A program made the position numbers and the translations under genes. Below, one piece after another: positions 14,041 to 30,579 of a stretch of 33,901 nt of DNA (its first letter is position 1; the number at the start of each line of letters is the position of its first letter). The stretch covers positions 1 through 33,901 of the forward strand of contig JAWALG010000009.1 of assembly GCA_038886995.1 (NCBI GenBank). Reading direction: 5' to 3'. Source of the stretch: Candidatus Iainarchaeum sp. GTDB taxonomy: Archaea; Iainarchaeota; Iainarchaeia; Iainarchaeales; DTGL01. Under the pieces are notes generated by a model. That model saw only the letters and a list, made by a program, of their open reading frames with translations. It was not told the DNA's origin and ran no database searches.

Positions 14041-14997
14041 ATGCCCATAAAGCGTCTTGACCTGAAGCTTGGCTTTAGATGCAACAACAATTGCCTAAGC
14101 TGTCCACAGGCCCATAGAAAACATCTTGGTGATTTAAGCACAGCTGAGGTAAAAAAACTTCTTGAGAAAGGCCGTGATCACGGCGCTAATGAAGTTGTGC
14201 TCACAGGCGGAGAGCCAACTGTAAGGCCCGACATCCTTGAAATAATCTCTTATGCAAAAAAACTTGGCTACGAGTTTATACAATTGCAGACAAATGCAAG
14301 GATGCTTTACTACAAAGAATTTTGCAAGAAGCTTATAAAAGCAGGAATAACTGAATTTGGGCCAGCGATCCATGGACCTAACGCAGAGGTTCATGATTAT
14401 TTGGTGCAGTCACCTGGCGCTTTTGGCCAAGCAATTAAAGGCATAAGAAACCTAAAAGAACTTGGCCAATATGTTATAATGAACTCAGTAATAAACAAAA
14501 TAAACTATAAACTTCTCCCTGAAACAGCAAAGCTTTTTGTTGACCTAAGCGTAGATCAATACCAATTTGCTTTTATACATTGTGTCGGGAATGCAAAAAA
14601 GAATATAGATCTATTATTACCAAAAAAAAGCGAGGTTATGCCCTACTTGCATAAAGCTTTGGACATCGGCATAAATGCAGGCATAAAAGTTATGGTTGAA
14701 GCATACCCATACTGTTTCATGCGTGGCTATGAAAAGTACTGCTCTGAGCTCTATATGCCACCAGCAGAGATAATGGATGCTGAAGGCATAGTAGAGGACT
14801 TTGACAAGCTTAGGAAAGAAACTGGCAAACTTAAAGGCCCTAAATGCAAAGGATGCCGCTATGACCTTATCTGTGAAGGGCCTTGGAAAGAATATCCTGA
14901 AAAGTTTGGCTGGGCCGAGTTTGTACCTATTGCTGGAAGAAAAGTTAAAAGCCCTGAAGAAATACTGGGGCAAGAATTGGCAAAAGAACTGAGTTAA
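14041..14997 (+). CDS. Radical SAM protein, HxsC-like paralogue 1
   Basis: CNNNCLSC, LTGGEPT, TNARML and HD motifs, plus a C-terminal CKGC.....CEG....Y...FG..EF.P cluster; adjacent to hxsB. Confidence 0.88.
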   Translation: MPIKRLDLKLGFRCNNNCLSCPQAHRKHLGDLSTAEVKKLLEKGRDHGANEVVLTGGEPTVRPDILEIISYAKKLGYEFIQLQTNARMLYYKEFCKKLIKAGITEFGPAIHGPNAEVHDYLVQSPGAFGQAIKGIRNLKELGQYVIMNSVINKINYKLLPETAKLFVDLSVDQYQFAFIHCVGNAKKNIDLLLPKKSEVMPYLHKALDIGINAGIKVMVEAYPYCFMRGYEKYCSELYMPPAEIMDAEGIVEDFDKLRKETGKLKGPKCKGCRYDLICEGPWKEYPEKFGWAEFVPIAGRKVKSPEEILGQELAKELS

Positions 14998-15030
14998 TTG
15001 TTTTAAAAAGATTGTCTACAATTCCCTAAT

Positions 15031-16482
15031 ATGGCTAAGATTATGATGGAAAATATGTTAGATTTTGACTCCGGTTATGTTCTTAATTTTTATAATGTTA
15101 AAAAGCTGAGGGAAAACGCATATTTGGTAACTACAGAGCACGGCGCATGGGCCTTGCTGAATAAAAAGCAATACTACCTGCTAAGGTTGCAGCAATTAAG
15201 CAAAGACAAAAAGCTCTTCAATGAGCTTGAAAAAAAAGGCATAATTTTAACTGAAAAAAATGTCCAAAATGCAGTAAAGGCCTATGCTGTAAGAAACTCT
15301 TTCCTGTTTCAAGGACCTTCGCTTCACATAATTGTGCCTACTCTGCGATGCAATCAACGTTGCATATACTGCCATTCGCGAGCAGAGCCCGAAAGTGGCA
15401 AAGGCTTTGACATGGACAGAGACACAGCAAAAGCAGTAGTGGACTTCATATTTAAGAGCCCTTCAAAAATACTGATCATAGAATTTCAAGGTGGCGATTG
15501 CCTTCTAAACTTTGAAATAACTGAGTTTATAATAGATTATGCGAAAGATCTTGCAAAGAAAAAGAAAAAGAGTGTTGGCTTTTCAATTGTAACAAATCTT
15601 ACCAAAATGGATGAGGACATTATAAGAAGTTTAAAGGAAAGGCACATAATGGGTTTGGCAACATCTCTTGACGGACCTAAGCACGTGCATAACAAAAACA
15701 GGCGTTACCTTGGTGGAAAAGGCACTTATGAAGATGTTGTATACTGGATAAAAAGGATTAAAGAGGAATGGAAATACGACTTCAACCTAAATGCGCTTTG
15801 CACAATAACAAGACATTCTTTGCCTTATGGCAAAGAAATTGTTGATGAATATATGTGTTTTGGTTTCAATGGTGTCTGGCTTAGGTTTATGAACAACATA
15901 GGTTTTGCTGCTGATTCTTGGACAAAGATAGGTTACACACCAGAAGAATACCTGATGTTTTATGAAAAGACCCTTGACTACATAGTCAGCAAAAACACAA
16001 GAGAGCAGCATTTCACAGAGTTGATGGCCTTGATATTCCTCAAGAAAATACTTACAGAAAGGGATCCTTACTTTACTGACATTCAGAGCCCTTGTGGTGC
16101 TGGAATAGGACAATTGCTTTACAAATACAATGGCGACATACATACCTGCGATGAAGGAAAGCTTTTTGAGGAGTTTAAGCTTGGCAATGTTTTCACTTCA
16201 AAGTATGAAGATATATTCAACAATGATACACTAACAACAATGATTGATATTTCCTCAAAAAAGAATTACCTTTGCGATGCTTGCGTTTGGAGCCCATATT
16301 GCGGCATATGCCCCTTGCATACTTATGCAACACAAGGCACGATTGTTTCAAAGCTTGCTCTTGATGAAAGATGCAAAATAATGCAAGGTCTTATAAGCAG
16401 AATTTTTGAAAGGCATTTATTCTCAAGGAAACACAGCGTTGTTTTCAAAAATTGGGTTGAAAAAGATGTTGTGTTTAAGTAG
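15031..16482 (+). CDS. hxsB: His-Xaa-Ser system radical SAM/SPASM maturase HxsB
   Basis: N-terminal RRE-like YLVTTEHG...ELEKKG, GPSLHIIVPTLRCNQRCIYCH, IEFQGG, TSLDGP..HNKNR, D..SPCGAGIGQL.Y.YNGD..TCDEG and C..C...PYCG.CP SPASM motifs; HxS precursor nearby. Confidence 0.93.
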   Translation: MAKIMMENMLDFDSGYVLNFYNVKKLRENAYLVTTEHGAWALLNKKQYYLLRLQQLSKDKKLFNELEKKGIILTEKNVQNAVKAYAVRNSFLFQGPSLHIIVPTLRCNQRCIYCHSRAEPESGKGFDMDRDTAKAVVDFIFKSPSKILIIEFQGGDCLLNFEITEFIIDYAKDLAKKKKKSVGFSIVTNLTKMDEDIIRSLKERHIMGLATSLDGPKHVHNKNRRYLGGKGTYEDVVYWIKRIKEEWKYDFNLNALCTITRHSLPYGKEIVDEYMCFGFNGVWLRFMNNIGFAADSWTKIGYTPEEYLMFYEKTLDYIVSKNTREQHFTELMALIFLKKILTERDPYFTDIQSPCGAGIGQLLYKYNGDIHTCDEGKLFEEFKLGNVFTSKYEDIFNNDTLTTMIDISSKKNYLCDACVWSPYCGICPLHTYATQGTIVSKLALDERCKIMQGLISRIFERHLFSRKHSVVFKNWVEKDVVFK

Positions 16483-16490
16483 GGGTTTGC

Positions 16491-17561
16491 TTGTTTGAAT
16501 TTTTCTTTGCTTTTGCAATTTTTGTTTCCTTGGCAATATCTCTCAAAGATATTAAGTATGGAAAGATACCAAATAAGTACATTGTTTTGCTTCTCGCTTC
16601 TGGCATTTTTTATCAGGCCATAAGTGCAGCAGATTACTTAAAGGTAGTTTTCACATTTTTCTATGCTCTTGCAGTGGCTTTTTTGCTCTGGCTTTTTGGC
16701 ATATGGCCGGCTGGCGATGCAAAGCTTTTCTCTGTTCTATTCCTGCTTTTACCGCAAACTCTTTATGCATCACCAAATCTGACATTTGACTTTCTGGTTA
16801 ATTGCTTCGTGCCAATATTCTTCTTTATGTTTTTTATAATAATAGCTAAAAGCCGTTTTTCAGTATTGAAAGATGCTATTAAGTTTACATTTCAGCCGTA
16901 TAGGGTAACAATCCTTGCTCTGGCTTTGCTCGGATTTGTTTGGTTCCTCTCTAAGCTGTTAAGCTTGATCGCTTTTGGGCAAGCAATTTTTAGTGACTAC
17001 TTTGTAATGTTGCTTCTACTTTTTTTAACTTATGAGGCTTTTAGGCGAATTCTAAGTGCAAAGTTGGAGCTTCTTTTTTTTGCGCTTGCTGTGCTTAGGG
17101 TTGTGCTTGACTACAGGAATGTTTACTCGATATCTTTTATGCTCAACTTCGCAACAATGATTGGAGTATTTCTTTTCTTCAGATTCTTCATAATATACTT
17201 GGCCTTTAAGCTTTACACTAAGAGCGTTCCTATAAAGAAACTTAAGCCGGGAATGTGCCCAGCAGAGATGATTTTGCAGAAAGGTAATGGCTTTGAGAGA
17301 GTTAGCTTCCTTAACTCAGGCCTTTTGGCCTTTGGTAATGAAAAGAGGGGGCAGATACTGCATAACATTGATTGCCTCTCGGAAGATGATATAAAGAAAA
17401 TAAAAAAGCTCCGCAGAGAAAAGAAGATTCCATTTGATGACATGCTGATAAACTTTACTCAGCCATTTGCAATATTCATTGTTTTGGGGTATGCTCTTAC
17501 TGTGCTTTTTGGGACAAGCTTTTTGGTTTTTATATCCAAACAATTACTGCTTTTTAAGTGA
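16491..17561 (+). CDS. A24-family prepilin/prearchaellin peptidase, long multi-TM (EppA-like) form
   Basis: SLKDIKYGKIPN and GIWPAGDAKLF catalytic Asp motifs, about 10 TM segments, LKPGM..AE and PFA.FI..G C-terminal motifs; TTG start 8 bp after the hxsB stop. Confidence 0.9.
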   Translation: MFEFFFAFAIFVSLAISLKDIKYGKIPNKYIVLLLASGIFYQAISAADYLKVVFTFFYALAVAFLLWLFGIWPAGDAKLFSVLFLLLPQTLYASPNLTFDFLVNCFVPIFFFMFFIIIAKSRFSVLKDAIKFTFQPYRVTILALALLGFVWFLSKLLSLIAFGQAIFSDYFVMLLLLFLTYEAFRRILSAKLELLFFALAVLRVVLDYRNVYSISFMLNFATMIGVFLFFRFFIIYLAFKLYTKSVPIKKLKPGMCPAEMILQKGNGFERVSFLNSGLLAFGNEKRGQILHNIDCLSEDDIKKIKKLRREKKIPFDDMLINFTQPFAIFIVLGYALTVLFGTSFLVFISKQLLLFK

Positions 17562-18595
17562 GTAAAAAAATGCCTGCGGGAATCTTGTAACTATGGAATG
17601 GCTTGCTTCACATAAGGTCCAGCAGTTATTTCAGTTCTCTATTCTTTTGGATATTTCCCTGGCTTTGTTTGATTGGAGAAGCTTAGCTAAGGAGTAATTA
17701 AAGTCGCGTAAGTTGCCCAGTAAATCTCCTCTAGAAATGCAAGGAAAAACATTTAAGCAAGGATCTAAAAAATTGAATTATTGGCAGCTCCACAGTGCAG
17801 GGGGTTCTTTAGACCTGGTTCTATGAGAGACAAGTAGATTCTTTTAAGAAGATATTCTGAAGAAAGCGAAAAGGTTAGCTTTTTTCTTATTTCGGCGGCT
17901 TCTTTGTGTGCATTTTTGGCAAAATTAGAATATTCACTATCTAGCTCCTTATTTGCGTAGAAATTCTCGGATATGTGAAATAAAGTAAATTGGAAATCCT
18001 TTTCAGTGCAGCCAACCCTTGTGTTGGCTCCCTTGAGTGTTTCTTCAAAAAGACCAAAGTTGTATGGGCTTATAGTGAACTCAAAAAGGCATCTAAAGTT
18101 GCTGAAATCATTTTCTAAGGTCTTGAGAAGGGCAAAACATTTCAAGCTTTTCTTAAAGGCCCCTTTTGCTCCTCTTTGTGAATCATGAAACTCTTCGGGC
18201 CCATCTAGACTTATTGTTACAATAGTGCGAGGTATCCCCAGGGCGGCAATTCTCTTTGCTTTTTTTAGGATTCTGCCAGGGTTCGAGCCGTTAGTGGGGA
18301 TGTTAAGAACATATAAGCAACAGTTCCTCTTTGCTGATTCGGCTATTTTTTTCAATGTCGTTTCTGAGGAATGGCTCTCCGCCTGTCAAGCTTAGCCATC
18401 TAATAAATCTTGCCTTTGAGAACAAGGCATCGATTTCTTTAATATCCGCCTCTTTTATTTGCTTTTTTTCCAGATTTTGCAAATTTTACATTTGTAGTTG
18501 CACTTGTGAGTTACAGCAAAAGTCATCTTGAATGGTTTTTTTGGTGTTCTGAAATTGCATAAAAAAACCTCTGAAAAAAAGGAAATGCCACGCAT
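17544..18595 (-). pseudogene. Disrupted radical SAM/SPASM (Twitch) gene with three homopolymer frameshifts and one in-frame TGA
   Basis: ATG at 18595 gives ...FAVTHKCNYKCKICKIW. Shift at A7 (18469-18463) gives ...WLSLTGGEPFLRNDIE. Shift at A7 (18352-18346) gives the ORF-track fragment with PTNG, ISLDG and CGA. Shift at T6 (17772-17767) gives LDPCLNVFPC...LGNLRD...IEN*NNCWTLCEA..., ending at TAA 17546-17544. Confidence 0.88.
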
Positions 18596-18647
18596 AATCG
18601 ATTTTTGTTGCGATACATTAAAAACAATTATTTGAGTTAATGTAAAT

Positions 18648-19562
18648 ATGCCTGAAATAAAAACTGCTTTGCTTCTTGGCTACAAATGCAACAATAATTG
18701 CAGGTTTTGCTATGCAGCAGATAAACGTGAATTGCCCTTGATGAGTACTGAAGAAGCAAAGAGGCAATTAAGGGCTGCAGTAGAGCGTGGATCAACCTTT
18801 GTTGATTTTCTCGGCGGCGAGCCAACAATAAGAAAAGACCTTGTTGAGCTAATTTCTTATGCAAAAGAGCTCGGCTTTAAAACTATAAGCATCACAACAA
18901 ATGGAAGGATGCTTTCAAATGCTGAATATGCAAAGAAGCTTTATGATGCGGGATTAAATTCTGCGGTATTTTCAGTGCATGGCCACAACGCAGAGCTGCA
19001 TGACTACCTTGTTAATGTTAAAGGCGCTTTTGACCAGCTTGTGAAAGGCATGCAGAACTTCAGGGCAATATCAGAAGAGGTCTATATATGCACAAATACA
19101 GTTATCGTAAAACCAAACGTTGCATTTTTGCCAGAGATTGCTGAAATAAATGCAAAGCTTGGGGCTAACGGCATGGAGTTTATTTTTCCGCATCCAAGAG
19201 GCAACGCTTACAAAAATTTTGAAGATATGGTTCCGAGGCTTGAACATTTAATAGGTGTTGTGCAAAAAACAATTGGTGTATGCACTTCAAAGGGCATAAG
19301 GCATTGTTATTTCAGATACGTGCCTTTTTGTTATATGTACGGCGCTATAAATTTCATAAGTGAATACGCAGCAAAAACTTCACTAAAAGAAACTCACATA
19401 GGCCCAGAATTTGAGGACCTCGAAGTTGAAAAAAACCGCACCAAGCAAGGCCGTGTCAAGGGACCTCAGTGCTTTGGATGTAAATACAATGAAATCTGCG
19501 AAGGGATCTTTAAAGAATATGCTGAAAAGCGCGGCTTTGAGGAATTGGTGCCTGTGCCATAA
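18648..19562 (+). CDS. Radical SAM protein, HxsC-like paralogue 2
   Basis: CNNNCRFC, GGEPT, TNGRML and HG..AE.HD motifs; C-terminal KGPQCFGC.....CEG....Y....G.EEL.P. Clearly paralogous to 14041..14997. Confidence 0.88.
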   Translation: MPEIKTALLLGYKCNNNCRFCYAADKRELPLMSTEEAKRQLRAAVERGSTFVDFLGGEPTIRKDLVELISYAKELGFKTISITTNGRMLSNAEYAKKLYDAGLNSAVFSVHGHNAELHDYLVNVKGAFDQLVKGMQNFRAISEEVYICTNTVIVKPNVAFLPEIAEINAKLGANGMEFIFPHPRGNAYKNFEDMVPRLEHLIGVVQKTIGVCTSKGIRHCYFRYVPFCYMYGAINFISEYAAKTSLKETHIGPEFEDLEVEKNRTKQGRVKGPQCFGCKYNEICEGIFKEYAEKRGFEELVPVP

Positions 19563-19571
19563 TAAGGTGCT

Positions 19572-20030
19572 ATGATGGAGTTAAGGATATTGCTAAATGC
19601 CTTGAAAAGGAAAGAGTTCGCATTTCCAATAGCTTTTCTTTTATTTTTGCTAATCTTTGGAATAATAATGCTAATTAACGACTTAGCAAATAGACCAAAA
19701 AGTATTGAAGAAGCAAAAAAATCTGGCTGTGTTTTAGAGTATGGGCAATGGCAGTGCATTGACGGAAAGATTGCGATACCTTTTTATAACCCTGGACCGA
19801 AAGACATAACTCTGGCAAGAGTATCGATTCCGGTCACCAAAGGCCTAAACATATATGAGGCAAATGATTTACTCCATAGCAACGAAGCCGGAAGTCTGAT
19901 TACTGCAAACTGCGAAGAGGCGTTTATGGAAAAAGCAAATTTACAATGGTGCTGCTCAGGAATGTGTTTTATTAGTGATTTTAAAAGCCCAAATTTGAAT
20001 ATTTCAATAAAAGTAGATTCAACGCAATAA
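19572..20030 (+). CDS. Hypothetical membrane-anchored Cys-containing protein
   Basis: AAGGTG RBS, 9 bp after the radical SAM stop, one TM helix and six Cys in the ectodomain. Confidence 0.7.
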   Translation: MMELRILLNALKRKEFAFPIAFLLFLLIFGIIMLINDLANRPKSIEEAKKSGCVLEYGQWQCIDGKIAIPFYNPGPKDITLARVSIPVTKGLNIYEANDLLHSNEAGSLITANCEEAFMEKANLQWCCSGMCFISDFKSPNLNISIKVDSTQ

Positions 20031-20051
20031 TATGGCGATAATTTTTAAAGA

Positions 20052-20981
20052 TTAGTCGAGCAATGTAGCGATACCCCCCTGACACAGGATGTCTTCAATG
20101 CTTTTGTACCTCTGTAGAATGATATTTTTTAGTTGCAAACCTTGCTTTTCTTCAATAAGGGGGCTTATTTTACAGAATTTTCTTAAAATCAGATAGTCGC
20201 GCATAAAACAAAGGTTACTCAATTGTTTTTCAGGGGGGTTTCCTTTTATTTTTTTACATATGCTTGCGTCAATCTCGGATGCTATTTCTGGACTATCGGC
20301 CTTGATCCCCAACAAGTCACTATCAAAGAGATTACCCAAGACCACTGCTTTATTTTTCAAACTTTTCAGATTATCAGTAGTATTTGGTTCATCAGTTTTT
20401 GTTTTTAATACTTTGTAGGCAATCTCTTTTTTATTTAACAAATCAGCATTGCCGCATTCTTTCTCGGCAGTAAGATAGCCATATAGAAGTTCCAGATCGC
20501 CTTCATTGAATGATTCTTTACTAAAGTAATTTCTCCAGTGTTGCAAGGCTTTGGCGAACTTGGGGTTTGATATAATTTTAGCTTGAACCTCTTGCCAGTT
20601 TTTATCTCTATTTAATACTTTGCTACCAAGACAATAGCTACCCAAAACTTCCACTGGGTTACAAAGCTCAGGTATAGCGCAGTGCTTCTCAAAAGATGAA
20701 TCCATTAATGTTAATACATAGGGTATCTCACTATTGAGCTTTTCGGGGTCTTTGTCACCTGCAAAATAAACAAAAACGGATTTTGCTGCTAATACGTTAT
20801 ATATGGCTCTTGGTGTATTCTCGTCAGAAAGGACTAGTGGAATTTCATCATAACTGTAAATGTATGCTGGCTTGTTTTTACTATTTTGTGCTGTCAAGAT
20901 GTTGATGGCCACTACCAACAGCAGAATGGTGGCGATTAGGATGGCAAACCAAATAATTTTTTTGTTGGAAATCATCATCAC
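20052..20981 (-). CDS. Hypothetical secreted or membrane-anchored protein with multiple Cys
   Basis: KK plus a hydrophobic N-terminal helix; TATA-like TTTATATA upstream at about 21025. Confidence 0.7.
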   Translation of the reverse strand: MMMISNKKIIWFAILIATILLLVVAINILTAQNSKNKPAYIYSYDEIPLVLSDENTPRAIYNVLAAKSVFVYFAGDKDPEKLNSEIPYVLTLMDSSFEKHCAIPELCNPVEVLGSYCLGSKVLNRDKNWQEVQAKIISNPKFAKALQHWRNYFSKESFNEGDLELLYGYLTAEKECGNADLLNKKEIAYKVLKTKTDEPNTTDNLKSLKNKAVVLGNLFDSDLLGIKADSPEIASEIDASICKKIKGNPPEKQLSNLCFMRDYLILRKFCKISPLIEEKQGLQLKNIILQRYKSIEDILCQGGIATLLD

Positions 20982-21054
20982 CAGCCCACATCCGTTATTA
21001 TGTGAGAAAAACGAACTTTATATAAATATATAATTAGAAATTTTTTTGGTTGAT

Positions 21055-22902
21055 TTATAGCGCCAGGTAGAGTTCATAAAGCTCATTTCTATTAAAGACA
21101 TCATCTATTTTAGGTCCAGACCTACCGTCGCAGAACTCAACTTTCGAGTTTTGCTTTACCTTAAAGAGTTCTAAGCAATTTGAGCAATCACTTGGTATAT
21201 TGAAATATTCATAAAAGTCTTTCTCTTTTTTGTCACTTGAATCACTTATTTTTATTTTTTTAGTCACTAGGAATGGAATTCCGTTGGTTTTGAGGGAATA
21301 GAGAAAGTCCTTAAAAAAAACAGTTTCTCTTGTGTTTAGCTGCTGCTTGCATGGTGGAGAAAGCAAAAAAAGCACAAGGCCTTTAATCCGTTCATTGAGT
21401 TTCAACATTCTCGAAAGCAATATTTCCAAGTTATCACTCTTGGGATTTAATCTAACAAGGACAGCACTACCTACAGCATTACCTGTCCTTGGAACTGAGT
21501 TAAAGTTATTGTAAACGGGCATCTCGATATTCTGCCCTATAAGGTATGTTCTATTTTTTGCGATTTTTAGATATGGCTTTAGCTTTATGAGTTGGCTTTC
21601 AGCCAAGTATCTGAAGTAAGCTAAGGTCTCTTCTTTTCTCTCCTTGCAATGTGTTTTGTCTGGTAGGTAGATTGTCCCATTCTTTCGAATATTGCTCAGC
21701 AAACACCCGCCCCAACAAAGCTTAAAGTCGCATTCATAGCATTTCTTTACTTTTCGGTACCATGTGCGCACCTCATTTAGCCTATCTTTGTCTAAAATTA
21801 TTTTTTTATTTTTGAAGTCATACCTCCCAAAAACCAACTTATTTGCGTTATGATTAACGACATCATATTCATCACCTAGCATAGCACATGGTGTAACAAG
21901 ACCTTCAGGAGTTATCACAAAAGAAGAAGAAACTGCACATCCACAAATTTGTGTATTACCAATCGATTTTTGGGCTGGTAGCAAACATTTAAGGTTTATT
22001 ATATCGCACAGCTCTTTTATTTTTAGCTGCGATTCTATTAGCCATTCATATTGCTTCATCGATCTTATTTTTTCTGCGGAAAGCGCTTCTTTCCCAATGT
22101 CACCAACTATTGTAATGAAAAGTCTTTTTACGCCTAGCGAGAGAAAATATTTTACTACATCTGATTCTTTCCCAAGGTGTTTTTCTGTCAGAGTTATTTT
22201 GACTGTGAAATTCATGTTTTTAGATATCAATTTCCTTAGGTTGTTTTCAACAATTTGGCTACTTTTTAGACCATTTTTTAAAGGCCTTAGTGAATCTTGT
22301 ATCTCGGGTGGGCCATCGCAAGATATCTGAAATGAGTCATAAAATGGGTTTTCCTTTAATATTTTAAGGAATTTCTCAGGCAATAGTGTGCCATTTGTTG
22401 AAAGCTTGAATTGTTTCACATTTATTGACTTCTTAGTTATATCAATGGTCTTTGAAAAAAGTGGAAAGTTTAGCAGGGCTTCACCAGAAGTTACGAAATC
22501 AACTATAACCCCCTCCTTTTGGTTTCTAGCAATGAATTCTGTTGCTGCTTTTATTATTTCCAAAGAAGAGTCCTTACCACTTTTTAATCCGCCATATCCA
22601 ACACAGTATCTGCAGTTCATATTGCATTTAGTGGTCGATGCTGGAAGAAAACATGAAAATGATTCAACTTTTGCAAATGGTTTCATTAAGTTGACTGCTA
22701 AGTATTTTTGACCATGAGAACTAAACAAATCTTTATCCATAACGTAGAAATTCGAAGAATTGCTACAAAATGCAACATACAAGTTTTTTCTTCTGAAAAG
22801 AAAGTGAAGGAAAGGGCTTCTTCTTGAAAGCTCTTTCTTAATATCAGAGGTCTCTTTGCTAAAGAACTTTTCATTATTTTTTTCAAATATCTTAAGAAGC
22901 AT
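21055..22902 (-). CDS. Radical SAM/SPASM peptide-maturase-like protein with an extra C-terminal domain of about 170 aa
   Basis: CNMNCRYC, STNG, ISCDG...QD..R, then CGC...ITPEG.V.PC and CYEC....CWGGC...C SPASM cysteines; starts 8 bp after the hxsA stop. Confidence 0.9.
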   Translation of the reverse strand: MLLKIFEKNNEKFFSKETSDIKKELSRRSPFLHFLFRRKNLYVAFCSNSSNFYVMDKDLFSSHGQKYLAVNLMKPFAKVESFSCFLPASTTKCNMNCRYCVGYGGLKSGKDSSLEIIKAATEFIARNQKEGVIVDFVTSGEALLNFPLFSKTIDITKKSINVKQFKLSTNGTLLPEKFLKILKENPFYDSFQISCDGPPEIQDSLRPLKNGLKSSQIVENNLRKLISKNMNFTVKITLTEKHLGKESDVVKYFLSLGVKRLFITIVGDIGKEALSAEKIRSMKQYEWLIESQLKIKELCDIINLKCLLPAQKSIGNTQICGCAVSSSFVITPEGLVTPCAMLGDEYDVVNHNANKLVFGRYDFKNKKIILDKDRLNEVRTWYRKVKKCYECDFKLCWGGCLLSNIRKNGTIYLPDKTHCKERKEETLAYFRYLAESQLIKLKPYLKIAKNRTYLIGQNIEMPVYNNFNSVPRTGNAVGSAVLVRLNPKSDNLEILLSRMLKLNERIKGLVLFLLSPPCKQQLNTRETVFFKDFLYSLKTNGIPFLVTKKIKISDSSDKKEKDFYEYFNIPSDCSNCLELFKVKQNSKVEFCDGRSGPKIDDVFNRNELYELYLAL

Positions 22903-22910
22903 TTATGACA

Positions 22911-23273
22911 CTAATAGCACCAAACATCATAACAATAGCCAATCCCACTATAGTGGCTTCCGTGGCTGCTGTGGCTGGAGTGGCTGCTGTGGCTGCTGTG
23001 AGAACTGTGACTGGAGTGGCTCGCATGACTCGCGTGATGTCCATGGCTTGCTGTAATATTTCCAGCATTCCAACCAACGCTAAAATAGTTAGTATGTGCT
23101 GCAGCGACTTCAGGCAAAATATTAAGTATTGAAACTGAACCTAAAAAAGCGCCCAAGGCAAGCATCTTGTGCTTCGAAATGCTGCCGCGCTCCTCCAAAA
23201 CAAATGATTTTATTGTCTTTTTTACCCTGGGCAAAAAATTTTCTTTTTTAGGGCTTTTTTCTTCTTTTTGCAT
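22911..23273 (-). CDS. hxsA: His-Xaa-Ser repeat precursor peptide HxsA
   Basis: Ten consecutive HxS triplets (HAS HAS HSSx6 HGS HYS) after a charged-plus-hydrophobic leader; flanked by HxsB/C/D homologues. Confidence 0.93.
   Translation of the reverse strand: MQKEEKSPKKENFLPRVKKTIKSFVLEERGSISKHKMLALGAFLGSVSILNILPEVAAAHTNYFSVGWNAGNITASHGHHASHASHSSHSSHSSHSSHSSHSSHGSHYSGIGYCYDVWCY
22947..23036 (-). repeat. Ten imperfect 9-nt tandem units encoding His-Xaa-Ser
   Basis: Units CAC/CAT-NNN-AGY/TCT with synonymous variation (TCC AGT, AGT TCT, AGC AGC, TCC AGC), which indicates selection at the protein level. Confidence 0.95.
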
Positions 23274-23292
23274 CTATTAAATAATAGATATA

Positions 23293-23303
23293 CTTATTTA
23301 AAA
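23293..23303 (-). promoter_or_regulatory. TATA box for hxsA; transcript probably leaderless
   Basis: TTTTAAATAAG ends about 20 nt before the ATG at 23273, with purine-rich AGAAA upstream and no RBS. The same 11-mer lies upstream of the perR-like gene. Confidence 0.6.
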
Positions 23304-23337
23304 TATTTCTGGGGCACTTTGCAGCCATAACAAGAAA

Positions 23338-24180
23338 TCAAATAATTGGGTTAAACTCTTTTCCCCCAGCAATAGCAAGGTAACTTTTCCATATCTTTGG
23401 GCATTTTTCTCTAACTTTACACATTGCACATTTTTTTAGAAGTGTTAGCTCTGCCTCCTGCTTTGTCACGCCTTCCGCAAGAGGCCAATATTTTTTATTT
23501 ATTATACATAGGGGAAAATGAAACAACCTTACCTCAAATCCTGCATCTAACAGAATGGTTGCGGCTTTTTGTACAAAGGGTGCTGCCTTGCAATATCTAA
23601 CGAAAATCTTGTGCCTGTTTATAAAAGCATTTCCTGTGTATTTTAAGTTGATAAAAACAACTCTCTCGAGGCCTTTGAAATTTTTTGTTATGAATTCTGC
23701 AGTTTTGCTTAAACTCTTATAATTCGCTTTTTCCACGAGAATTCTTAACTCAACTTTGAAGCCACTTTGAAGAAGATTATTTATGCCTTGAACTGTTTCG
23801 TTCCAGCTACCTTTTGCCAAAGTAATGTTGTCATGCACTTTGGGGTCATGGCTATAGAGTGCTATACCGAAGCGTATCGGCTCAAGCTTACTCTTATCCA
23901 ATTCTGCTAAAAAACTTTTTTCAGAAAACTTCCGCCCATTGCTAACAACAAAAATGAACTTCTTTGGGTGCTTCTTCCTTGCATAGGTCAGAATGTCGGG
24001 GAAATCGTCTCTAAGCGTTGGTTCTCCGCCAGTTACGCTGAAAATTTCTTCTTGTGGGATTTTGTTTATGATTTCAAACAGTGCATTTTTGCTTTGTTCG
24101 CCGAAACAAACAGTCATGCGTGTATCCATTATGCAGCTTATGCAATTATTGTTACACTTGAAGGTTAGTGGCCACTCCAT
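23338..24180 (-). CDS. hxsC: His-Xaa-Ser system radical SAM maturase HxsC-like (paralogue 3, between hxsD and hxsA)
   Basis: CNNNCISC, VTGGEPTL, SNGR.F, GIALYSHD..VHD, GSW.ETV.GI.NL, VELRI, PLC and C..C.....C motifs. Confidence 0.85.
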   Translation of the reverse strand: MEWPLTFKCNNNCISCIMDTRMTVCFGEQSKNALFEIINKIPQEEIFSVTGGEPTLRDDFPDILTYARKKHPKKFIFVVSNGRKFSEKSFLAELDKSKLEPIRFGIALYSHDPKVHDNITLAKGSWNETVQGINNLLQSGFKVELRILVEKANYKSLSKTAEFITKNFKGLERVVFINLKYTGNAFINRHKIFVRYCKAAPFVQKAATILLDAGFEVRLFHFPLCIINKKYWPLAEGVTKQEAELTLLKKCAMCKVREKCPKIWKSYLAIAGGKEFNPII

Positions 24181-24252
24181 TTCAAATCGACTCTATTCAA
24201 CTTTTTTAAGGCCCCGCTCTAGTTTTTCATTCATTTTCACTACCAAACAAAA

Positions 24253-24510
24253 TCAAGGTGCTGCGCCCTTTATAATACCTAAAAGGAAGTTGCAAAATTC
24301 TAAAGCAAAAGTTTCAGCACACCTTTTTTCAGTTTTCACTGTAATATGAAAGTAATTTTTTGACTCTTTATTTGTTAATTTCGCGCCTTTAACTTCTTTA
24401 AGCGCTTTGTTAACTACTTTTTTAGGGTAAAATGCCTTCGAAAGATTTATTTTTGCTGTTTTTTTACTCTTATTGACTTCAATAGGAGAACCCTTACAAC
24501 CAGCAGTCAT
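24253..24510 (-). CDS. Small HxsD-like protein
   Basis: INLSKAFYPKKVVNKAL...ALEFCNFLLG parallels the N-terminal module of the adjacent HxsD; 3-bp gap to hxsD. Confidence 0.65.
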   Translation of the reverse strand: MTAGCKGSPIEVNKSKKTAKINLSKAFYPKKVVNKALKEVKGAKLTNKESKNYFHITVKTEKRCAETFALEFCNFLLGIIKGAAP

Positions 24511-24513
24511 AAT

Positions 24514-25017
24514 TCAACCTTTTTTAATTATTTTTGGCTTCTTAAGCCCTTTCGCCTTTTCCGGAGTCCAGGGCCTGGCTATGCCTTCAGGGTCGTCTAT
24601 GAATAGGTCTTCATCAGGCATTTTTATCTTTTCTGCTTTTTCATCTAATCTACTTTTTTCCTCAGATGCACATTCTTCGCAATATTCTGCTTCAGAGAGG
24701 TTTGTGGCCAGAGCACGCCTAATTATCGCTTCCCTTATGGGTTGGTTGCGCGCTGCTTGTACTGCGTAAGTTGCATAATTTATTAGCTCATCATGGAGCT
24801 TTAAAGCAAGAGATTCAAGCTGTTTCTTGCTGGCTTTTTCTTCTTTTGGCTTTATAAAAACTTTAATCTCTTTTTGCGGATCCCCATCAAGTATAAAGTA
24901 CGCTTTATCCATAAGTACATAACAAGCAGCATAAACGACTTCAAGAGGAAAAACTTTTGGGTTCACATTTACAATTGCTTCATTTTTATCGGGGGATACT
25001 TCAACATTGTGTACCAT
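24514..25017 (-). CDS. hxsD: His-Xaa-Ser system protein HxsD (ATG at 25017 preferred over the ORF-track start at 25047)
   Basis: VNPKVFPLEVVYAACYVLMDKAYFILDG...LHDELINY...IREAIIRRAL is the HxsD pattern. AAGTGA RBS-like sequence precedes 25017. Confidence 0.85.
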   Translation of the reverse strand: MVHNVEVSPDKNEAIVNVNPKVFPLEVVYAACYVLMDKAYFILDGDPQKEIKVFIKPKEEKASKKQLESLALKLHDELINYATYAVQAARNQPIREAIIRRALATNLSEAEYCEECASEEKSRLDEKAEKIKMPDEDLFIDDPEGIARPWTPEKAKGLKKPKIIKKG

Positions 25018-25119
25018 AAAAATCACTTTTGAGCATGCATCGAACAATGGAAAGGTTAATTAATAACAATAATTAAATATATAAAAATGTTTATATTTTA
25101 GCGCTCACAGGGATAAAAC

Positions 25120-28100
25120 ATGAAATTGTCTGAATATTTTTTCTTGAAGTTTATTCTGGTTGTTCTGCTAATTAACTTTTTTGGTTTTGTAAATGCACAA
25201 ACGTGCTACGGCGGGCTTTCAGGAAGTAGTTTGCGGGATTGCATTGGCAGTGACGAGAGTCCATGCCATTACTGTGATGTTAGTGACATGGACTATGAAA
25301 TAAGAGCACCTGACAATATTACAACAACTGGTTGGCGCGATATGACTTATTCTACGCAAGTTGGAACATGTAGCGTTAGTTGCACTCAAGAAACATGGAC
25401 AGCAAGCTATCTTTGGTGCCCTCAAGAAGGAACTTATTCAATGAGGACAAGGGCTTATGCACAAGGAGGTAGTGGTTATGCTTGGGAAACTAGTGACTGG
25501 AACACAAACGCTTATACTGTAAATTACGATTATGAACAAATATGGTGTACTTGCAAAGGTGGCACATGGCTTTCAGGAGCAACATACTGTGGCAGCCTTG
25601 GATGCCAAGGCGGAAAGTGCTGTGGCGATGATGGTGCAAATGACAATTTTTGTGTTGCTGGTGGTGGGAGCTGCGTAGCTGGAACATATTACGCAAACCA
25701 TTGTTCAGATGGTGTCCAAAACTGTGATGAACAAGGTGTTGATTGTGGTGGTGCTGATTGTACTCCTTGTGTAAGTGTTGTTATAAATAACCCAAACGGC
25801 AACCAATACATAAAGGGCACATACAACATTGATTTCAATGTTTATGACCCAAATAACGGAGAACTGCATGCAAAAATTGCATATTCTGCATTGCCAGGTC
25901 TTTTTTCTAACACAATTGTTTCAGATCTCAACCTAAATAATGATCCAAACATTGGCGCCTTAACCTGTGATAAAACTAACTGGAGCACTTCAACAAGGTG
26001 CATATATTCTTGGGACACTACAACAGCAAACGATGGCAACTATTACATAGATATGAATGTGTGGAGCATTTCAGGTGGCTCCTCGATAGATTCTAGCAAT
26101 GCCTCATTTGCAATAGACAACACAGCACCTACTACCAGCGCTAGTGCAAAGAAGAGTGATGACACCAATTATACATTTGGAGAATGGAGTAAACTAAATG
26201 TTACTGTAACACTTGAATGCTCGGACGAAACAGCTGGTTGTGATAAAACATATTACTGCTTTGGCTCCGGTTGCAATCCCACAACAATTTATTCTTCCCC
26301 AATAACAATATCCTCAGAAGGCACAACATACTTGAGGTTCTACTCTGAGGATAATGCAGGCAATAGTGAAAGTGTTCAAGAAAAGATTGTAAAAATAGAT
26401 AAGTCTGGGCCGACAACAACAGACAATGCTCCCACAACTTGGCAAATTAGTGATTTCAATATAACCCTTAGCTGTGATGATGGTTCCGGCATTGGCTGTT
26501 CTGAAACCTATTACAGGATAAACAATGGTGCTTGGCAGCCCTATTCTGAAGGCATAAGCATAACACAAGATGGAAACAATCGCATTGATTATTACAGCAA
26601 CGATCTGCTAAACAACATTGAAGACACAAAAACTTGTTATGCTCCACTAGATAAAACTCCGCCAGTAATAGATGTTAACTCTCCTTTGGCTAATGAAGTT
26701 ATAGAGTCAACTATATACGTAAGGTTTAAAGTAAACAAAGGTTTGGGATCACCTTTAGACTTTAATTCGATAACTGTGCTTTTGGATGGTACTGAAAGCG
26801 ATGATTTTATTAGGACAGAACACTGCATAGAATCTAGTGGCGATTATATCTGCTCTTATTACGAATATGTTAACACTGCAAAGGATTACAACCTTTCAAT
26901 AATAGTAAGTGATGAAGCGGGTTGGACAGCACAACAAGACATTAATTTCTTGTATTTAGGTCACACTTCTTTCAATATAGAAGGTTACATTGTAGAACCT
27001 AGCACACCAATGGCTGGAACTAATTATTCAATGATGGATGTTGGTTTAAGCTTATTCGGTGGCTCTCTCTGTGCCGCGGCGAAATGCATTGAAACGGGCT
27101 TCCCAGCAATATTCAGGAATATTCCACCAGTGCTTGTATATGCTGGTTATGAAGAGGGTTACTTTAACGGAGACCTTAACATAAGGTTCTATGCTGCTGA
27201 CTATGAGATGGGTGAATTGCACACTAAGATAGCATATTCTACATCCAAAGGCTCATTCCAAAACAGCATTGTTAATGACCTTAACCTAAACAATTACCAA
27301 AATATTGATAGGTTAAGTTGCGCAAGTACTGATTGGCGTTACGCTAAATTATGCACTTATGAGTGGGATACAACACAAGCGAGCGATGGCAACTATTATC
27401 TTGACCTAAATCTATGGGATGAACATGGTGCAAGTAGCAGCTATTCAACAACTAACACTCTCTGTATAGACAATATTGCGCCAGATATAAATGTGATTAA
27501 TCCACAGCCAAACGAAATAATTGAAGATCCCTGGGTGATGTTCAAGATATCTGAAAATGGTTGTGCTCCTTTGGTTTTGAGTTCAATATCAGTTCTTTTG
27601 GATGGTGAAGCCGCTAACTTTGACTATGTTAGGGATTGCAATAAAAGTGGATCTGAGTATACCTGTGGCTTTAACATAATTGGGCTCGTTGAAAGAGATT
27701 ATAATTTGAGCATAATAGTAAGTGATTTAGCGACAAATAAGAGGCAAGTTGATGTCAACTTCAGATTTATTCCAAAAATTTCTGTAAGTGCTATCCGGCC
27801 CAGTGGCACTCTTGAGACGGGAGATATAACAATATCCTTTAATGTTTACAATACCTCGCTGAGTGAGCTCCATGCAAAGATATATTATAGCTCAATATAT
27901 GCTGGAAAACTTGGCTTTGAAAATGCGATAGAAACAGACCTAAATCTCAACAACTATGCACAGATAGAAAACCTAAATTGCACCTCAAATGCTTGGTGGC
28001 CACCGGTGCAGTGCACATACTACTGGGATGCTAGCAGTGTTGCTGATGGCAACTATTACATAGATATAAATATCTGGACAAATGAGGGTTTAACAGCATC

Positions 28101-28827
28101 GGGCTCATCTTTAAAGCAATTCCTCCTTGACAATACACCACCTGTAGCGAGTATCACTGGTGTTTCAGAAACAGTGACATTTGAAGATACTATCTATTTA
28201 AACTGCACTGACTCTGTCTCAGGATGTAAACAAACCAGGTGGTATTATTTCAGTGACAATGGTGTTTGCTCAAGCACGAAGGATGATTACACACAAACCA
28301 CTAATTCTAACAGCATCACAATTACTGAAGACAACAACAGCTACATTTGCTTATGGGTCGAGAACAATGTTAACCTAAGCTCAAAGGCAACTTCTTCTAG
28401 GTTAAATGTGCTTTCAAGCAGTTGGGGAATTGTAAAAGGCCCAAGCGAAACAATAAATGAGGCAGCATTGGATTTAAACAATGCCTGCTCTTTCTATGTG
28501 AGCTCTGATATAAATCTTGCATGTGAGTACCAAAGCTTTGTGAAGATAAGAAGCTACGATGTGGACATAGGCAGAGTTTATCCTTTGTCTCCATCTATAA
28601 TAGAATCGTCTGAGAGGCCACTTGAGGTTTTGCTTGAGTCATCAATAACAAGCTTCTATGATAAAAGATACTACATAATATTTGAGGGTGAAACCACAAG
28701 GATAACAAGCCAAGGTAGTGAGAAAGATTATCCTAATGTAATTGTGAGGCGCAGAACATTGCCTTTGCTAAAAGCCAATGGTAACCTTGAGCTTGGAACC
28801 CTGATCATAAAGGCGGGTAAAAGGTAA
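25120..28827 (+). CDS. Large secreted Cys-rich surface protein built from repeated Ig-like modules
   Basis: Signal peptide; Cys/Gly-rich N-terminus (CSDGVQNCDEQGVDCGG); three ELH.KI.YS...DLNLN...C...W...C.Y.WD...DGNYY modules; two P...SI.VLLDG...DYNLSIIVSD modules; D(N/K)xxP linkers. Confidence 0.85.
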   Translation: MKLSEYFFLKFILVVLLINFFGFVNAQTCYGGLSGSSLRDCIGSDESPCHYCDVSDMDYEIRAPDNITTTGWRDMTYSTQVGTCSVSCTQETWTASYLWCPQEGTYSMRTRAYAQGGSGYAWETSDWNTNAYTVNYDYEQIWCTCKGGTWLSGATYCGSLGCQGGKCCGDDGANDNFCVAGGGSCVAGTYYANHCSDGVQNCDEQGVDCGGADCTPCVSVVINNPNGNQYIKGTYNIDFNVYDPNNGELHAKIAYSALPGLFSNTIVSDLNLNNDPNIGALTCDKTNWSTSTRCIYSWDTTTANDGNYYIDMNVWSISGGSSIDSSNASFAIDNTAPTTSASAKKSDDTNYTFGEWSKLNVTVTLECSDETAGCDKTYYCFGSGCNPTTIYSSPITISSEGTTYLRFYSEDNAGNSESVQEKIVKIDKSGPTTTDNAPTTWQISDFNITLSCDDGSGIGCSETYYRINNGAWQPYSEGISITQDGNNRIDYYSNDLLNNIEDTKTCYAPLDKTPPVIDVNSPLANEVIESTIYVRFKVNKGLGSPLDFNSITVLLDGTESDDFIRTEHCIESSGDYICSYYEYVNTAKDYNLSIIVSDEAGWTAQQDINFLYLGHTSFNIEGYIVEPSTPMAGTNYSMMDVGLSLFGGSLCAAAKCIETGFPAIFRNIPPVLVYAGYEEGYFNGDLNIRFYAADYEMGELHTKIAYSTSKGSFQNSIVNDLNLNNYQNIDRLSCASTDWRYAKLCTYEWDTTQASDGNYYLDLNLWDEHGASSSYSTTNTLCIDNIAPDINVINPQPNEIIEDPWVMFKISENGCAPLVLSSISVLLDGEAANFDYVRDCNKSGSEYTCGFNIIGLVERDYNLSIIVSDLATNKRQVDVNFRFIPKISVSAIRPSGTLETGDITISFNVYNTSLSELHAKIYYSSIYAGKLGFENAIETDLNLNNYAQIENLNCTSNAWWPPVQCTYYWDASSVADGNYYIDINIWTNEGLTASGSSLKQFLLDNTPPVASITGVSETVTFEDTIYLNCTDSVSGCKQTRWYYFSDNGVCSSTKDDYTQTTNSNSITITEDNNSYICLWVENNVNLSSKATSSRLNVLSSSWGIVKGPSETINEAALDLNNACSFYVSSDINLACEYQSFVKIRSYDVDIGRVYPLSPSIIESSERPLEVLLESSITSFYDKRYYIIFEGETTRITSQGSEKDYPNVIVRRRTLPLLKANGNLELGTLIIKAGKR

Positions 28828-28844: not shown

Positions 28845-29705
28845 TTAAGCTGGTGCGAAGAGGGAAATTGCGGTTATATAAATAAACAATGATGTTGTGA
28901 GGAGTATTATTGAATGCTTTATTCCTGCTATAAAGCTATCCTCAGCTATTTTGCCTATCATTGGTCCAGCAAAGAGAGCCTGTATAATTATAAGCCTAGT
29001 GAAGTGCTCTTGATAATCTACATCTTCGGCTGTTGGCTGAGAGGCAATTGGCTGTCCAGTTATATCTATGCCACCTTCAAGCACTTGGCCAACGTTTATG
29101 CCAACTTGCTCCTTAAGAATCGGGATAAAGAAAACATATATGAGTATTATTATGATAACAAAAACGTAAAACATGAGATAGGAGTTTATAAGCGCGGATG
29201 TAGTCCTAGATTTCCTCTGGCTTTTAAGCTTTTCAACTTTGTCAACATAGTCAATTGCAACAGAGAATACCTTCATAAAGTTGCCGCCTGCACGTAGCGT
29301 TTGGTTTATAGCTACGGTTGTTTTCTTTATAACTGGGCTGTTTAGGCGTCCGAAGGTTATAAGCATTGCTTTCTCCATTGGCACCCCTAAACGAACTTTT
29401 GCTGCAAGCCTCTTCACATATATGGTCAGCGGCCCATAATCATTCTTGGCAGTTATAACCAAGGCATCACTTATGTTGACCCCGCCTTGGAGGAGATCCT
29501 TTAGGTCATCCAAAAAAACCCTGAAGTTTTCTTCAATTTCCTTAACCACTTTAGTCCTAATATAAAAGGCATACATCGGCGGTATGAAAAGCAAGATAAA
29601 AGGCACTAATGAAAAGCTCGTGTTATTTAGCACAAAGTAAGATGCCAAAAAGACAATAACGCCGATAAAAATCCATCTCCCATAATATTTCCATTCAACT
29701 GCCAT
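28845..29705 (-). CDS. Type II/IV secretion system F-domain platform protein (TadC/ArlJ/PilC-like)
   Basis: IEENF..FL.DL....GG.....AL......DYGPL; ...GG; IIQALFAG..IGKI.E.S...G.KHS; multiple TM segments. Confidence 0.9.
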   Translation of the reverse strand: MAVEWKYYGRWIFIGVIVFLASYFVLNNTSFSLVPFILLFIPPMYAFYIRTKVVKEIEENFRVFLDDLKDLLQGGVNISDALVITAKNDYGPLTIYVKRLAAKVRLGVPMEKAMLITFGRLNSPVIKKTTVAINQTLRAGGNFMKVFSVAIDYVDKVEKLKSQRKSRTTSALINSYLMFYVFVIIIILIYVFFIPILKEQVGINVGQVLEGGIDITGQPIASQPTAEDVDYQEHFTRLIIIQALFAGPMIGKIAEDSFIAGIKHSIILLTTSLFIYITAISLFAPA

Positions 29706-29709
29706 TAAA

Positions 29710-30579
29710 TCACTCTTCAGACATCATATACATTACAAACATGAATATTAGATTTGCTATCGGCATTCCGAAAACAACACCATAAAAAAGAATCTCGTTA
29801 ACTGTAAGTCCGAACATCTTTCCTGCTGAGAAAAAATTAAGCATCATTATTGTGAAAAATATAAAAAGTGGTGCTGCAATCATTAGGATAGTGTATATTT
29901 CACCCATTGTTTCTGCCCTATCTGAAGCCCTTTCTAGCATGAGACGGTACCTGAAGTATGCGTCATCAGCCCTTTTTGCCATAAACTCACGCAAATCACC
30001 GCCGCTTTTAATTGTGGTATTAAGCTCTTTGAGGAATGTTTTAAAAGAAGGCGATGGTGTTATTTCAGACATTTTATCAATAGCTTTTGTAAAAGACAAT
30101 CCGAGCTGGTTCATAAAGCGCTCAATCTTTCTGCATTCGTGCTTTAGCCTTGGGTATTCTTCACTGTTTGCTAGCACTTGAAACATATACTGTGGTGGTG
30201 CGCCTGCTTGTGTGACAGTAGACATTGTAAGTATTGCTAGTGGCAGGCTTGCTTCAATGTTCTTCTTTTTTCTCCCAAGGTCAAAATCAGGCCAAACTAA
30301 AGCAAAAATCCCAACAGATGCTGTAATAACAAGCGGGATAAAAAGTATCAGAATGTTTTTGACAAATAAAAAAAAGATAATAAGGCATAAAAGAAATGAA
30401 AGGAAAAAAGAAAGGAATATGGCAGTCAGGGAGTAAGCAACATACATCGCTTCAGGATATGGATAATCAATCATTCCAAGCTTTTGCCTTAGCTTTGCGT
30501 TTTCAAAGCCATTTAAGAGCTTATAAAAACTCTTACTTGCGATTTTGTGCAGTGTTTTCGATAGCATATTTCTCATCAT
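29710..30579 (-). CDS. Second type II/IV secretion system F-domain platform protein
   Basis: I...LP.A...M......G.PP, G.....A.......TPS..F...L......I.SGGDL, E...EIY......APL motifs; directly downstream of the ATPase. Confidence 0.9.
   Translation of the reverse strand: MMRNMLSKTLHKIASKSFYKLLNGFENAKLRQKLGMIDYPYPEAMYVAYSLTAIFLSFFLSFLLCLIIFFLFVKNILILFIPLVITASVGIFALVWPDFDLGRKKKNIEASLPLAILTMSTVTQAGAPPQYMFQVLANSEEYPRLKHECRKIERFMNQLGLSFTKAIDKMSEITPSPSFKTFLKELNTTIKSGGDLREFMAKRADDAYFRYRLMLERASDRAETMGEIYTILMIAAPLFIFFTIMMLNFFSAGKMFGLTVNEILFYGVVFGMPIANLIFMFVMYMMSEE

Follow-up and report, generated by a model that had tools for sequence, protein, structure and literature searches.

In the window analysed here, that is, the whole stretch of 33,901 nucleotides of the archaeon Candidatus Iainarchaeum sp. 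(contig JAWALG010000009.1, positions 1 to 33,901), positions 14041-25047 are occupied by twelve genes arranged in two arms. Together, these genes form an archaeal (DPANN, Iainarchaeota) variant of the His-Xaa-Ser (HXS) radical-SAM system, with an extra, probably dedicated A24 peptidase paralogue. The A24 family is that of the pilin-processing peptidases, and its enzymes are akin to presenilin and signal-peptide peptidase. The place of this peptidase in the hxs cluster, and in particular its relation to the precursor HxsA, are the subject of the present analysis.

The hxs locus and its A24 peptidase

The plus-strand arm begins with an HxsC4-like radical SAM gene, whose position upstream of hxsB is kept in loci of the same family. 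It continues with hxsB, the A24 peptidase gene and a second HxsC4-like radical SAM gene, and ends with p152. The minus-strand arm reads hxsD-like, HxsD-related, hxsC-like, hxsA, a gene for a 615-residue radical SAM/SPASM protein and p309 (Table 1). The hxsB product is a true member of TIGR03978. Its stop codon, TAG, is separated by 8 bases from the start of the A24 open reading frame (ORF), a TTG at position 16491, as a preliminary description of this DNA had it. The same description had placed the peptidase in the hxsB operon. This holds in so far as the gene follows hxsB on the plus strand, but hxsA, 5.35 kb from the A24 gene, belongs to a separate minus-strand operon; the two genes share a cluster but lie in different operons.

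Table 1. Genes of the hxs locus (scores in bits, curated cut-off in brackets; aa, amino acids)
Feature	Position	Strand	Evidence
HxsC4-like radical SAM, 318 aa; opens plus arm	14041-14997	+	PF04055 87.3; top NCBIfam family HxsC4 149 (500)
hxsB, radical SAM/SPASM maturase	15031-16482	+	TIGR03978 430.8 (370); Radical_SAM and SPASM domains
hxs-linked A24 (GxGD aspartyl) intramembrane peptidase, 356 aa, Arc_PepC insert; candidate catalytic D20, D76	16491-17561	+	Peptidase_A24 PF01478 33.1 (26.5); Arc_PepC PF06819 28.0 (23.4)
Split radical SAM gene, two overlapping ORFs (17765-18355 and 18303-18482; 196 + 59 aa)	17765-18482	-	ORF list
Second HxsC4-like radical SAM, 304 aa	18648-19562	+	PF04055 89.2; HxsC4 (NF038332) 157.5 (500)
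p152, small, membrane-anchored, family-less; after second radical SAM gene	19572-20030	+	No Pfam or NCBIfam match
p309, N-terminally anchored, family-less; ends minus arm	20052-20981	-	No Pfam or NCBIfam match
Radical SAM/SPASM, 615 aa, distantly HxsB-like, C-terminal extension	21055-22902	-	PF04055 53.4; best NCBIfam family PapB 105; TIGR03978 71
hxsA precursor, 120 aa	22911-23273	-	HxsA4 (NF038313) 45.5 (55); HxsA3 (NF038309) 38.2 (65); TIGR03979 17.2 (121.65)
hxsC-like radical SAM, 280 aa	23338-24180	-	TIGR03977 196.6 (267.9)
HxsD-related small protein p85	24253-24510	-	HxsD_rel (NF038315) 37.0 (41)
hxsD-like, 177 aa	24514-25047	-	TIGR03976 41.8 (50)

With the HXS systems of Pseudomonadota (HxsD-HxsB-HxsC-HxsA; PMC13128918; TIGR03976-03979), the locus shares an HxsB above the family cut-off, HxsC- and HxsD-like partners, and a precursor that carries tandem HxS triplets and an export signal. 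HxsC and HxsD are the best-matching families of the two partners, yet both score under the curated cut-offs, and HxsA remains far below that of the canonical family (Table 1). The locus also differs from those systems by the A24 gene, by a further HxsD-like protein and several additional radical SAM genes, and by a leader of about 30 residues ahead of the signal. It has no peptidoglycan-binding domain, its gene order is not the canonical hxsD-hxsB-hxsC-hxsA but one in two arms, and its host is an archaeon. Related variant families exist in NCBIfam: in the alignments of the window leader to HxsA3 and to HxsA4, the match starts at model position 2 in either case, and p85 aligns to HxsD_rel, a gene that sits between hxsD and hxsB in compact operons of relatives. 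Here too, the scores for HxsA3, HxsA4, HxsC4 and HxsD_rel are all under the cut-offs. PADLOC 2023, which has no HXS model, returned only a generic radical-SAM likeness to pVip.

The A24 ORF, which no NCBIfam model matches, shares with the archaeal peptidases FlaK, PibD and EppA (3S0X) both Pfam domains, the two Asp motifs and, as modelled, the FlaK fold. D20 lies in LKDIKYGKIPN and D76 in WPAGDAKLF. Across 22 hxs-linked A24 proteins, D20, N28, W72, D76, K78, L79, F80, P88 and A327 are invariant, and both Asp motifs recur in all 8 further bacterial members that were read. The AlphaFold model (pLDDT 85.6, pTM 0.78) has FlaK (3s0x_B) as its top match in a VIA-align comparison with 48,161 chains, with a Z score of 11.4 and a root-mean-square deviation of 3.9 over 165 aligned residues, the next match having a Z score of 5.4. 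Foldseek gave no match to the PDB at E ≤ 0.001, FlaK ranking 7th with an E value of 1.1 and a probability of 0.44.

A tree of 47 A24 proteins, built by a quick maximum-likelihood search, has a branch (SH-aLRT 94) that sets 30 long hxs-linked enzymes, from archaea as well as bacteria, apart from 12 A24 proteins encoded elsewhere in these genomes and from four PilD rows. On this tree, the hxs-linked enzymes group as a putative distinct subfamily, in this respect unlike FlaK, PibD and EppA. The long archaeal and bacterial hxs-linked enzymes grouping together hints that protease and cluster were exchanged together between the two domains. The genome under study (866 kb, 88.6% complete) encodes a second A24 protein, of 277 residues (PF01478, 56.3 bits), whose gene adjoins SRP54.

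The split radical SAM gene lies on the strand opposite to its two neighbours, the A24 gene and the second HxsC4-like gene. Its state probably reflects either a frameshift, which would make it a pseudogene, or a sequencing error; an intact homologue of 363 residues stands at the same place in locus L036. A role for this gene was dismissed, since it looks broken.

Recurrence of the A24 gene beside hxs genes

To check whether A24 genes and hxsB occur together had been proposed at the outset. In a survey of the phylum with TIGR03978 at E ≤ 1e-40, 33 hxsB places were found in 29 of 215 genomes and were all annotated with the window proteins. An A24 gene stands in or beside the hxs cluster at 29 of these 33 loci. 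Two others end at a contig edge before the expected A24 position (G102 and G113). The remaining two have no A24 gene in the available sequence (G011:C24, G012:C128 (upstream side cut)), but an A24 gene accompanies another hxs locus in each of these two genomes. Given this recurrence, the association of A24 with hxsB is far beyond chance, and the linkage is not peculiar to the present genome. Furthermore, of 61 relatives, 14 encode a close homologue of the window A24 (E ≤ 1e-26), and these are the very 14 that have hxsB. In genome G011, the hxs-linked A24 gene of L044 (4195-5026, +) is split into overlapping ORFs of 192 and 135 residues, the second hxs locus, L049, being the one without A24.

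The arrangement around the peptidase varies. A second family of the order has a compact operon, A24-hxsD-hxsDrel-hxsB-hxsA-radical SAM, in which HxsA has 67-92 residues. In other orders, G214 has an A24 protein of 379 residues (PF01478, 33 bits) inside the cluster, and G198 has a divergent one of 274 residues (L063:7873-8697, -; 27.2 bits for a cut-off of 26.5) whose gene is convergent on hxsB. The latter locus encodes an HxsA-like protein of 279 residues (L063:5337-6176, +) with 35 HxS triplets and the leader FKEYLLDNEG↓SVSEWAAW. The Gly of this leader is followed by an acidic residue and by no basic one, which brings it nearer to an Flp-type site.

A wider scan was based on an HxsB alignment with one genome per species. 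It covered the best 80 of 556 confirmed loci, within ±10 kb of hxsB, and partly overlaps the phylum set; the labels archaeal and bacterial were taken from record titles. The closest loci (HxsB 76-61% identical) are labelled Candidatus Iainarchaeum. An A24 gene was found at 43 of the 80 loci, 42 of them by an A24 profile made for the purpose and one, a PilD, by Pfam. The 38 archaeal-labelled loci belong to Iainarchaeota, Aenigmatarchaeota, Woesearchaeota, Nanoarchaeota and Nanohaloarchaea, and 29 of them have A24; five of the nine negatives have less than 2.4 kb on the relevant side. The 42 bacterial-labelled loci come from Patescibacteria groups, Elusimicrobia, Omnitrophota, delta-proteobacterial and other genomes. 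Fourteen of these have A24, eight of the long type and six being genuine PilD (A24_N_bact plus Peptidase_A24). Thus, three unlike A24 types stand beside hxs genes: the long Arc_PepC type, the 274-residue type of L063 and, at six Patescibacteria loci, the bacterial PilD.

In six Patescibacteria loci (L092, L098, L103, L104, L106 and L142), the hxs operon lies directly downstream, on the same strand, of a type IV pilus cluster (pilT, pilC, pilins) that ends in pilD. In these bacteria, the housekeeping prepilin peptidase may double for Hxs, or pilus and Hxs may be functionally tied.

Ten genomes without A24 within ±10 kb of hxsB were inspected as a whole, and all of them have an A24 gene elsewhere. 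In five of the ten, a long A24 lies on the contig and strand of hxsB. In four of these five, it is found 10-17 kb past hxsB, where it closes an unbroken same-strand operon rich in radical SAM genes. The fifth case, G223 (Elusimicrobiota), is ambiguous, with 36 kb and opposite-strand genes between A24 and hxsB.

The HxsA precursor and its modelled complex with A24

The leader of the window HxsA reads KKTIKSFVLEERGSISKHKMLALGAFLGSVSILNILPEVAAAH, with the Gly at residue 30, as had been quoted from the sequence. The precursor can be divided into a conserved leader part, at about residues 14-30, ending in EERG30, a basic SISKHK segment, a hydrophobic region at residues 37-50, a PEVAAA↓H junction and a core in which residues 80-109 form 10 HxS triplets in tandem. 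More generally, the leader has about 30 residues and the consensus P.[IV]KK.I..[FY]...EE.G. In 21 precursors from A24-bearing clusters, P15, E28, G30, I32 and K34 show no variation, and K19 and G41 hardly any. The Gly is present in 76 of 76 inspected matches to a leader profile; an Ala replaces it in one Elusimicrobia-like locus found outside that profile.

By inspection of the relatives, the Gly is followed by a spacer of 5-13 residues with 2-5 basic charges, and then by a hydrophobic stretch of 12-20 residues. A small-x-small site immediately precedes the His-rich core, AAA↓H in the window and ASA↓E, VSA↓Q or SQA↓N elsewhere. A layout like the n-h-c order of a Sec signal can be made out by eye in the window protein (KHK / MLALGAFLGSVSIL / PEVAAA↓H) and in 58 relatives listed. 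The N-terminus of HxsA therefore looks like an ordinary Sec-type signal with a conserved leader ahead of it. The genome also encodes a signal peptidase I of the archaeal kind.

In E. coli, the signal peptide of HxsA covers residues 1-22, with no N-terminal extension, and N-terminal processing of the protein goes beyond plain signal-peptide removal in a manner left unexplained (PMC13128918). A Novosphingobium plasmid (L151:3370-3627, +) encodes an HxS-repeat precursor of 85 residues, annotated without a function, upstream of hxsD/hxsB. This protein opens directly with a twin-arginine-like RRSFLK signal, and its SSAY end resembles the SY end of archaeal cores; no peptidase is annotated within 4 kb in a gene table that is itself incomplete. 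Many HxsA C-termini have an aromatic residue after Ser or Cys (…SSY, …GSY, …WCY, …GGWC), which hints at a conserved recognition or cross-link site. The HxsA of L038 (3832-5295, +) is a fusion protein of 487 residues, in which the usual leader and His-Ser/Cys-His repeats are followed by a family-less C-terminal region of about 330 residues.

A complex of A24 with residues 1-62 of HxsA was modelled. It obtained a score of 0.67, the best of three controls reaching 0.00. The mark used for this score is attained by 58 of 80 solved complexes and by 2 of 110 mismatched pairs, counts that, with alignments of our own as input, are only rough here. At least 80% of contacts are common to the runs, and the pLDDT of the partner is at least 63. 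On the A24 side, the interface comprises residues 20, 24-28, 64-78, 99-117 and 321-327 and takes in both catalytic residues (20 and 76) as well as the invariant F326/A327 region. On the HxsA side, it comprises residue 20 and residues 23-53, F24 facing residues 64-77 of the enzyme, I32 facing residue 326 and the helix 37-45 facing residues 99-110. The model thus supports binding of HxsA by A24. We know of no solved complex of an A24 enzyme with a substrate, so that a memorised complex of this kind is unlikely to explain the result.

A candidate leader peptidase for HxsA

The A24 protein truly belongs to the Hxs cluster, in which it is conserved. Considering the linkage across phyla, the A24 subfamily, the intact catalytic Asp residues, the invariant Gly and the complex model passing its controls, HxsA is its most likely substrate, as the preliminary description had suggested; the tie to the pilus that accompanied this suggestion did not find support. 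The reading that we favour, with a probability of roughly 55%, is that A24, as a dedicated Hxs component, cleaves HxsA at or near Gly30, on the cytoplasmic face of the membrane, so that the recognition leader is lost and a normal signal/anchor is left to export the modified core. For a cut after the Gly on that face, the one argument is the modelled contact with the catalytic face.

The following series of events may be envisaged. HxsA would be made with three parts, the leader of about 30 residues, the Sec-type signal/anchor and the His-Xaa-Ser core. Leader recognition and core modification would take place in the cytoplasm, through HxsB, the HxsC-like radical SAM enzymes and both HxsD proteins. 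The hydrophobic segment would then bring the precursor to the membrane, where A24, through D20 and D76, would cut at or near Gly30. After this step, the recognition leader would be gone, and an ordinary signal/anchor with the core would remain. Finally, the core would reach the outside of the cell, either freed by signal peptidase I at AAA↓H or tethered by the helix. As a tentative extension, to which we give slightly less than an even chance, the A24 subfamily would have been recruited as a dedicated leader peptidase whose cut at the junction serves as a checkpoint, letting only recognised (modified) HxsA be exported.

Several observations weigh against a leader peptidase role. Canonical HXS functions with four genes, none of which encodes a peptidase (PMC13128918). 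A comparison of leaders with and without A24 had been proposed as a possible refutation, and its outcome speaks in part against the idea. The motif turned out to be equally conserved in loci without A24 within ±10 kb (28 of the 42 bacterial-labelled and 9 of the 38 archaeal-labelled loci), so that the motif by itself is no evidence for A24 cleavage; but four of the ten such genomes inspected have an A24 at the end of the operon, as described above. The motif may serve mainly for recognition by HxsB. At four archaeal loci without A24 (L073, L079, L084 and L085), no leader-type precursor was found within 1.5 kb downstream of hxsB, which is too thin to count as co-variation. Substrate rules exist for FlaK, PibD and EppA, and against these the HxsA site looks unusual: the leader is long, position -2 has no Lys or Arg and is often acidic or neutral, no Glu is present at +5, and 2-5 basic residues in a spacer of 5-13 residues separate the Gly from the hydrophobic stretch. 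The preliminary description had itself cautioned about the missing Glu at +5, the KHK after the Gly and the small-x-small site before the His, and all three are there. The last of these sites would let signal peptidase I carry out the maturing cut alone. Moreover, the groups of the A24 tree were set by linkage, with only 12 other A24 proteins, a quick search and a midpoint root. As to the complex, its score is a model confidence on our own alignments, and a transmembrane helix may dock on a membrane protein in a generic manner.

Among the alternatives, an unlikely one would keep A24 in the system but have it act after export, like a signal-peptide peptidase: once signal peptidase I has cut at AAA↓H, the enzyme would cut the leader-helix remnant at the cytoplasmic face and so release, for clearance, the leader still bound to HxsB. 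The Sec-like layout and the small-x-small site of all relatives, the signal peptidase I gene and the GxGD architecture shared with FlaK agree with such an order of events, which the modelled contact fits equally well. To our knowledge, however, no A24 enzyme works as a post-export, remnant-clearing protease.

It is rather improbable that A24 belongs to the system but has another substrate, namely p152, p309 or their counterparts, or a non-proteolytic role, for example in export or scaffolding. Linkage by itself does not name a substrate. N-terminally anchored, family-less proteins do recur beside hxsA, such as p309 and proteins of about 300 residues in L147, L148 and Moranbacteria loci. Homologues of p152 occur in 11 hxs loci and those of p309 in 4. 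Nevertheless, neither protein has a Gly-containing junction before its helix, and neither shares the conservation of HxsA and its Gly across phyla. A role other than proteolysis is at odds with the invariant catalytic Asp residues and with the complex model, which passed with HxsA.

The possibility that HxsA is pilin-like, its radical-SAM-modified peptide being cut by A24 and built into, or shown on, the nearby type IV pilus, has to be considered in the light of the neighbouring genes. On the minus strand, positions 28845-33801 hold an archaeal type IV pilus-like operon with two T2SSF proteins, a T2SSE ATPase of 757 residues (N-terminal extension of about 390 residues), a protein of 110 residues and an RG↓QS protein of 236 residues. 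The T2SSF/T2SSF/T2SSE part (28845-32806) lies 5572 bp from the start of hxsA at its nearest point, in agreement with the 5.5 kb reported earlier. The 236-residue protein (33091-33801) begins MRSRGQSTIVSAVLYTLISL (MRSRGQST...), with a class III-like RG↓QS start. Between the hxs cluster and the pilus operon, a gene at 25120-28827 (+) encodes a secreted protein of 1235 residues with internal repeats and Cys-rich stretches, partial homologues of which are found near hxs loci L041, L043, L044 and L067. Nearness of the pilus operon to hxs is not kept in other archaeal loci except L133. Elsewhere in the same genome, contig C1 has at about 26-42 kb a dense group of genes with canonical class III signals ([KR][GA]↓Q...E) and is probably there the main pilus or pseudopilus locus.

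This proximity, the six Patescibacteria operons that follow a pilus cluster ending in pilD, and a certain likeness to Flp/Tad prepilins, the substrates of the peptidase TadV/CpaA, speak for display on a pilus. The N-terminal side of the Gly indeed resembles Flp leaders, with an F..[DE]E.G pattern (aromatic-x-x-acidic-acidic-x-Gly) and about six residues from the Gly to the hydrophobic core. However, HxsA has no E-Y after the Gly, no tad assembly genes are linked, and none of 21 leaders matches Flp_Fap or any pilin Pfam family, even at E ≤ 10; no relevant Pfam family was found on HxsA. The prepilin-like proteins of the genome itself are different. Their leaders have 5-15 residues, their cut site reads [KR][GA]↓Q, and positions +5 to +7 include an acidic residue, in at least 8 clear cases; a regular-expression scan of the genome for class III signals gave 63 matches, many of them plainly false, and only the clear cases were used. 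HxsA departs from the class III rule, with its 30-residue leader, SISKHK after the Gly and no acidic residue at +5. Cleavage at the AxA site that follows its Sec-type hydrophobic region would cut the core from the helix, and the shortest cores, of about 20 residues, have no pilin globular domain. Finally, homologues of the window pilus ATPase were found in just 5 of about 115 hxs loci fetched (four Patescibacteria and one archaeon). For these reasons, pilus display of HxsA, or HxsA as a pilin, is not supported and appears highly improbable.

Least probable of all is an incidental adjacency, raised as a caveat in the preliminary description, in which an ordinary peptidase of this pilin-processing family would merely serve the RG↓QS protein of the nearby operon and other pilins: the recurrence beside hxs genes in the phylum and in other phyla, the exact co-presence with hxsB in 61 genomes, the separate subfamily, the second A24 gene by SRP54 and the rarity of pilus ATPase homologues at hxs loci all argue against it.

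In E. coli, bacterial HXS keeps phage DNA from entering the cell (Li et al., Nat Commun 2026, PMC13128918), and an anti-viral role of the archaeal variant may be proposed by analogy only. In that survey, which deals with bacteria, more than 99.8% of 10,369 HXS systems have just four proteins, and the words peptidase, archaea and pilin do not appear in the main text (PMC13128918). A precedent for a membrane protease in a radical-SAM peptide cluster is EpeP, an M50 intramembrane enzyme for which leader removal coupled to export was proposed (PMC10885120). In its available portions, this 2023 review of leader proteases contains no mention of A24, prepilin or aspartyl proteases. No paper joining a prepilin peptidase with His-Xaa-Ser, and none describing the A24 link, was found in the searchable literature.

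As a leader peptidase, A24 would represent a new protease class for modified-peptide pathways and, if confirmed, would add an aspartyl intramembrane protease to the enzymes known to remove the leaders of modified peptides. HxsA would also be the first non-pilin substrate class of A24 enzymes. The N-terminal processing of HxsA, so far unexplained, could then be assigned to a kind of enzyme; this step is made directly testable by the variants of archaea and ultra-small bacteria, which encode the candidate protease within the cluster. If this reading is true, DPANN archaea and ultra-small bacteria would share, by transfer, an HXS-type envelope defence, and the anti-phage system would, if confirmed, extend to DPANN archaea.

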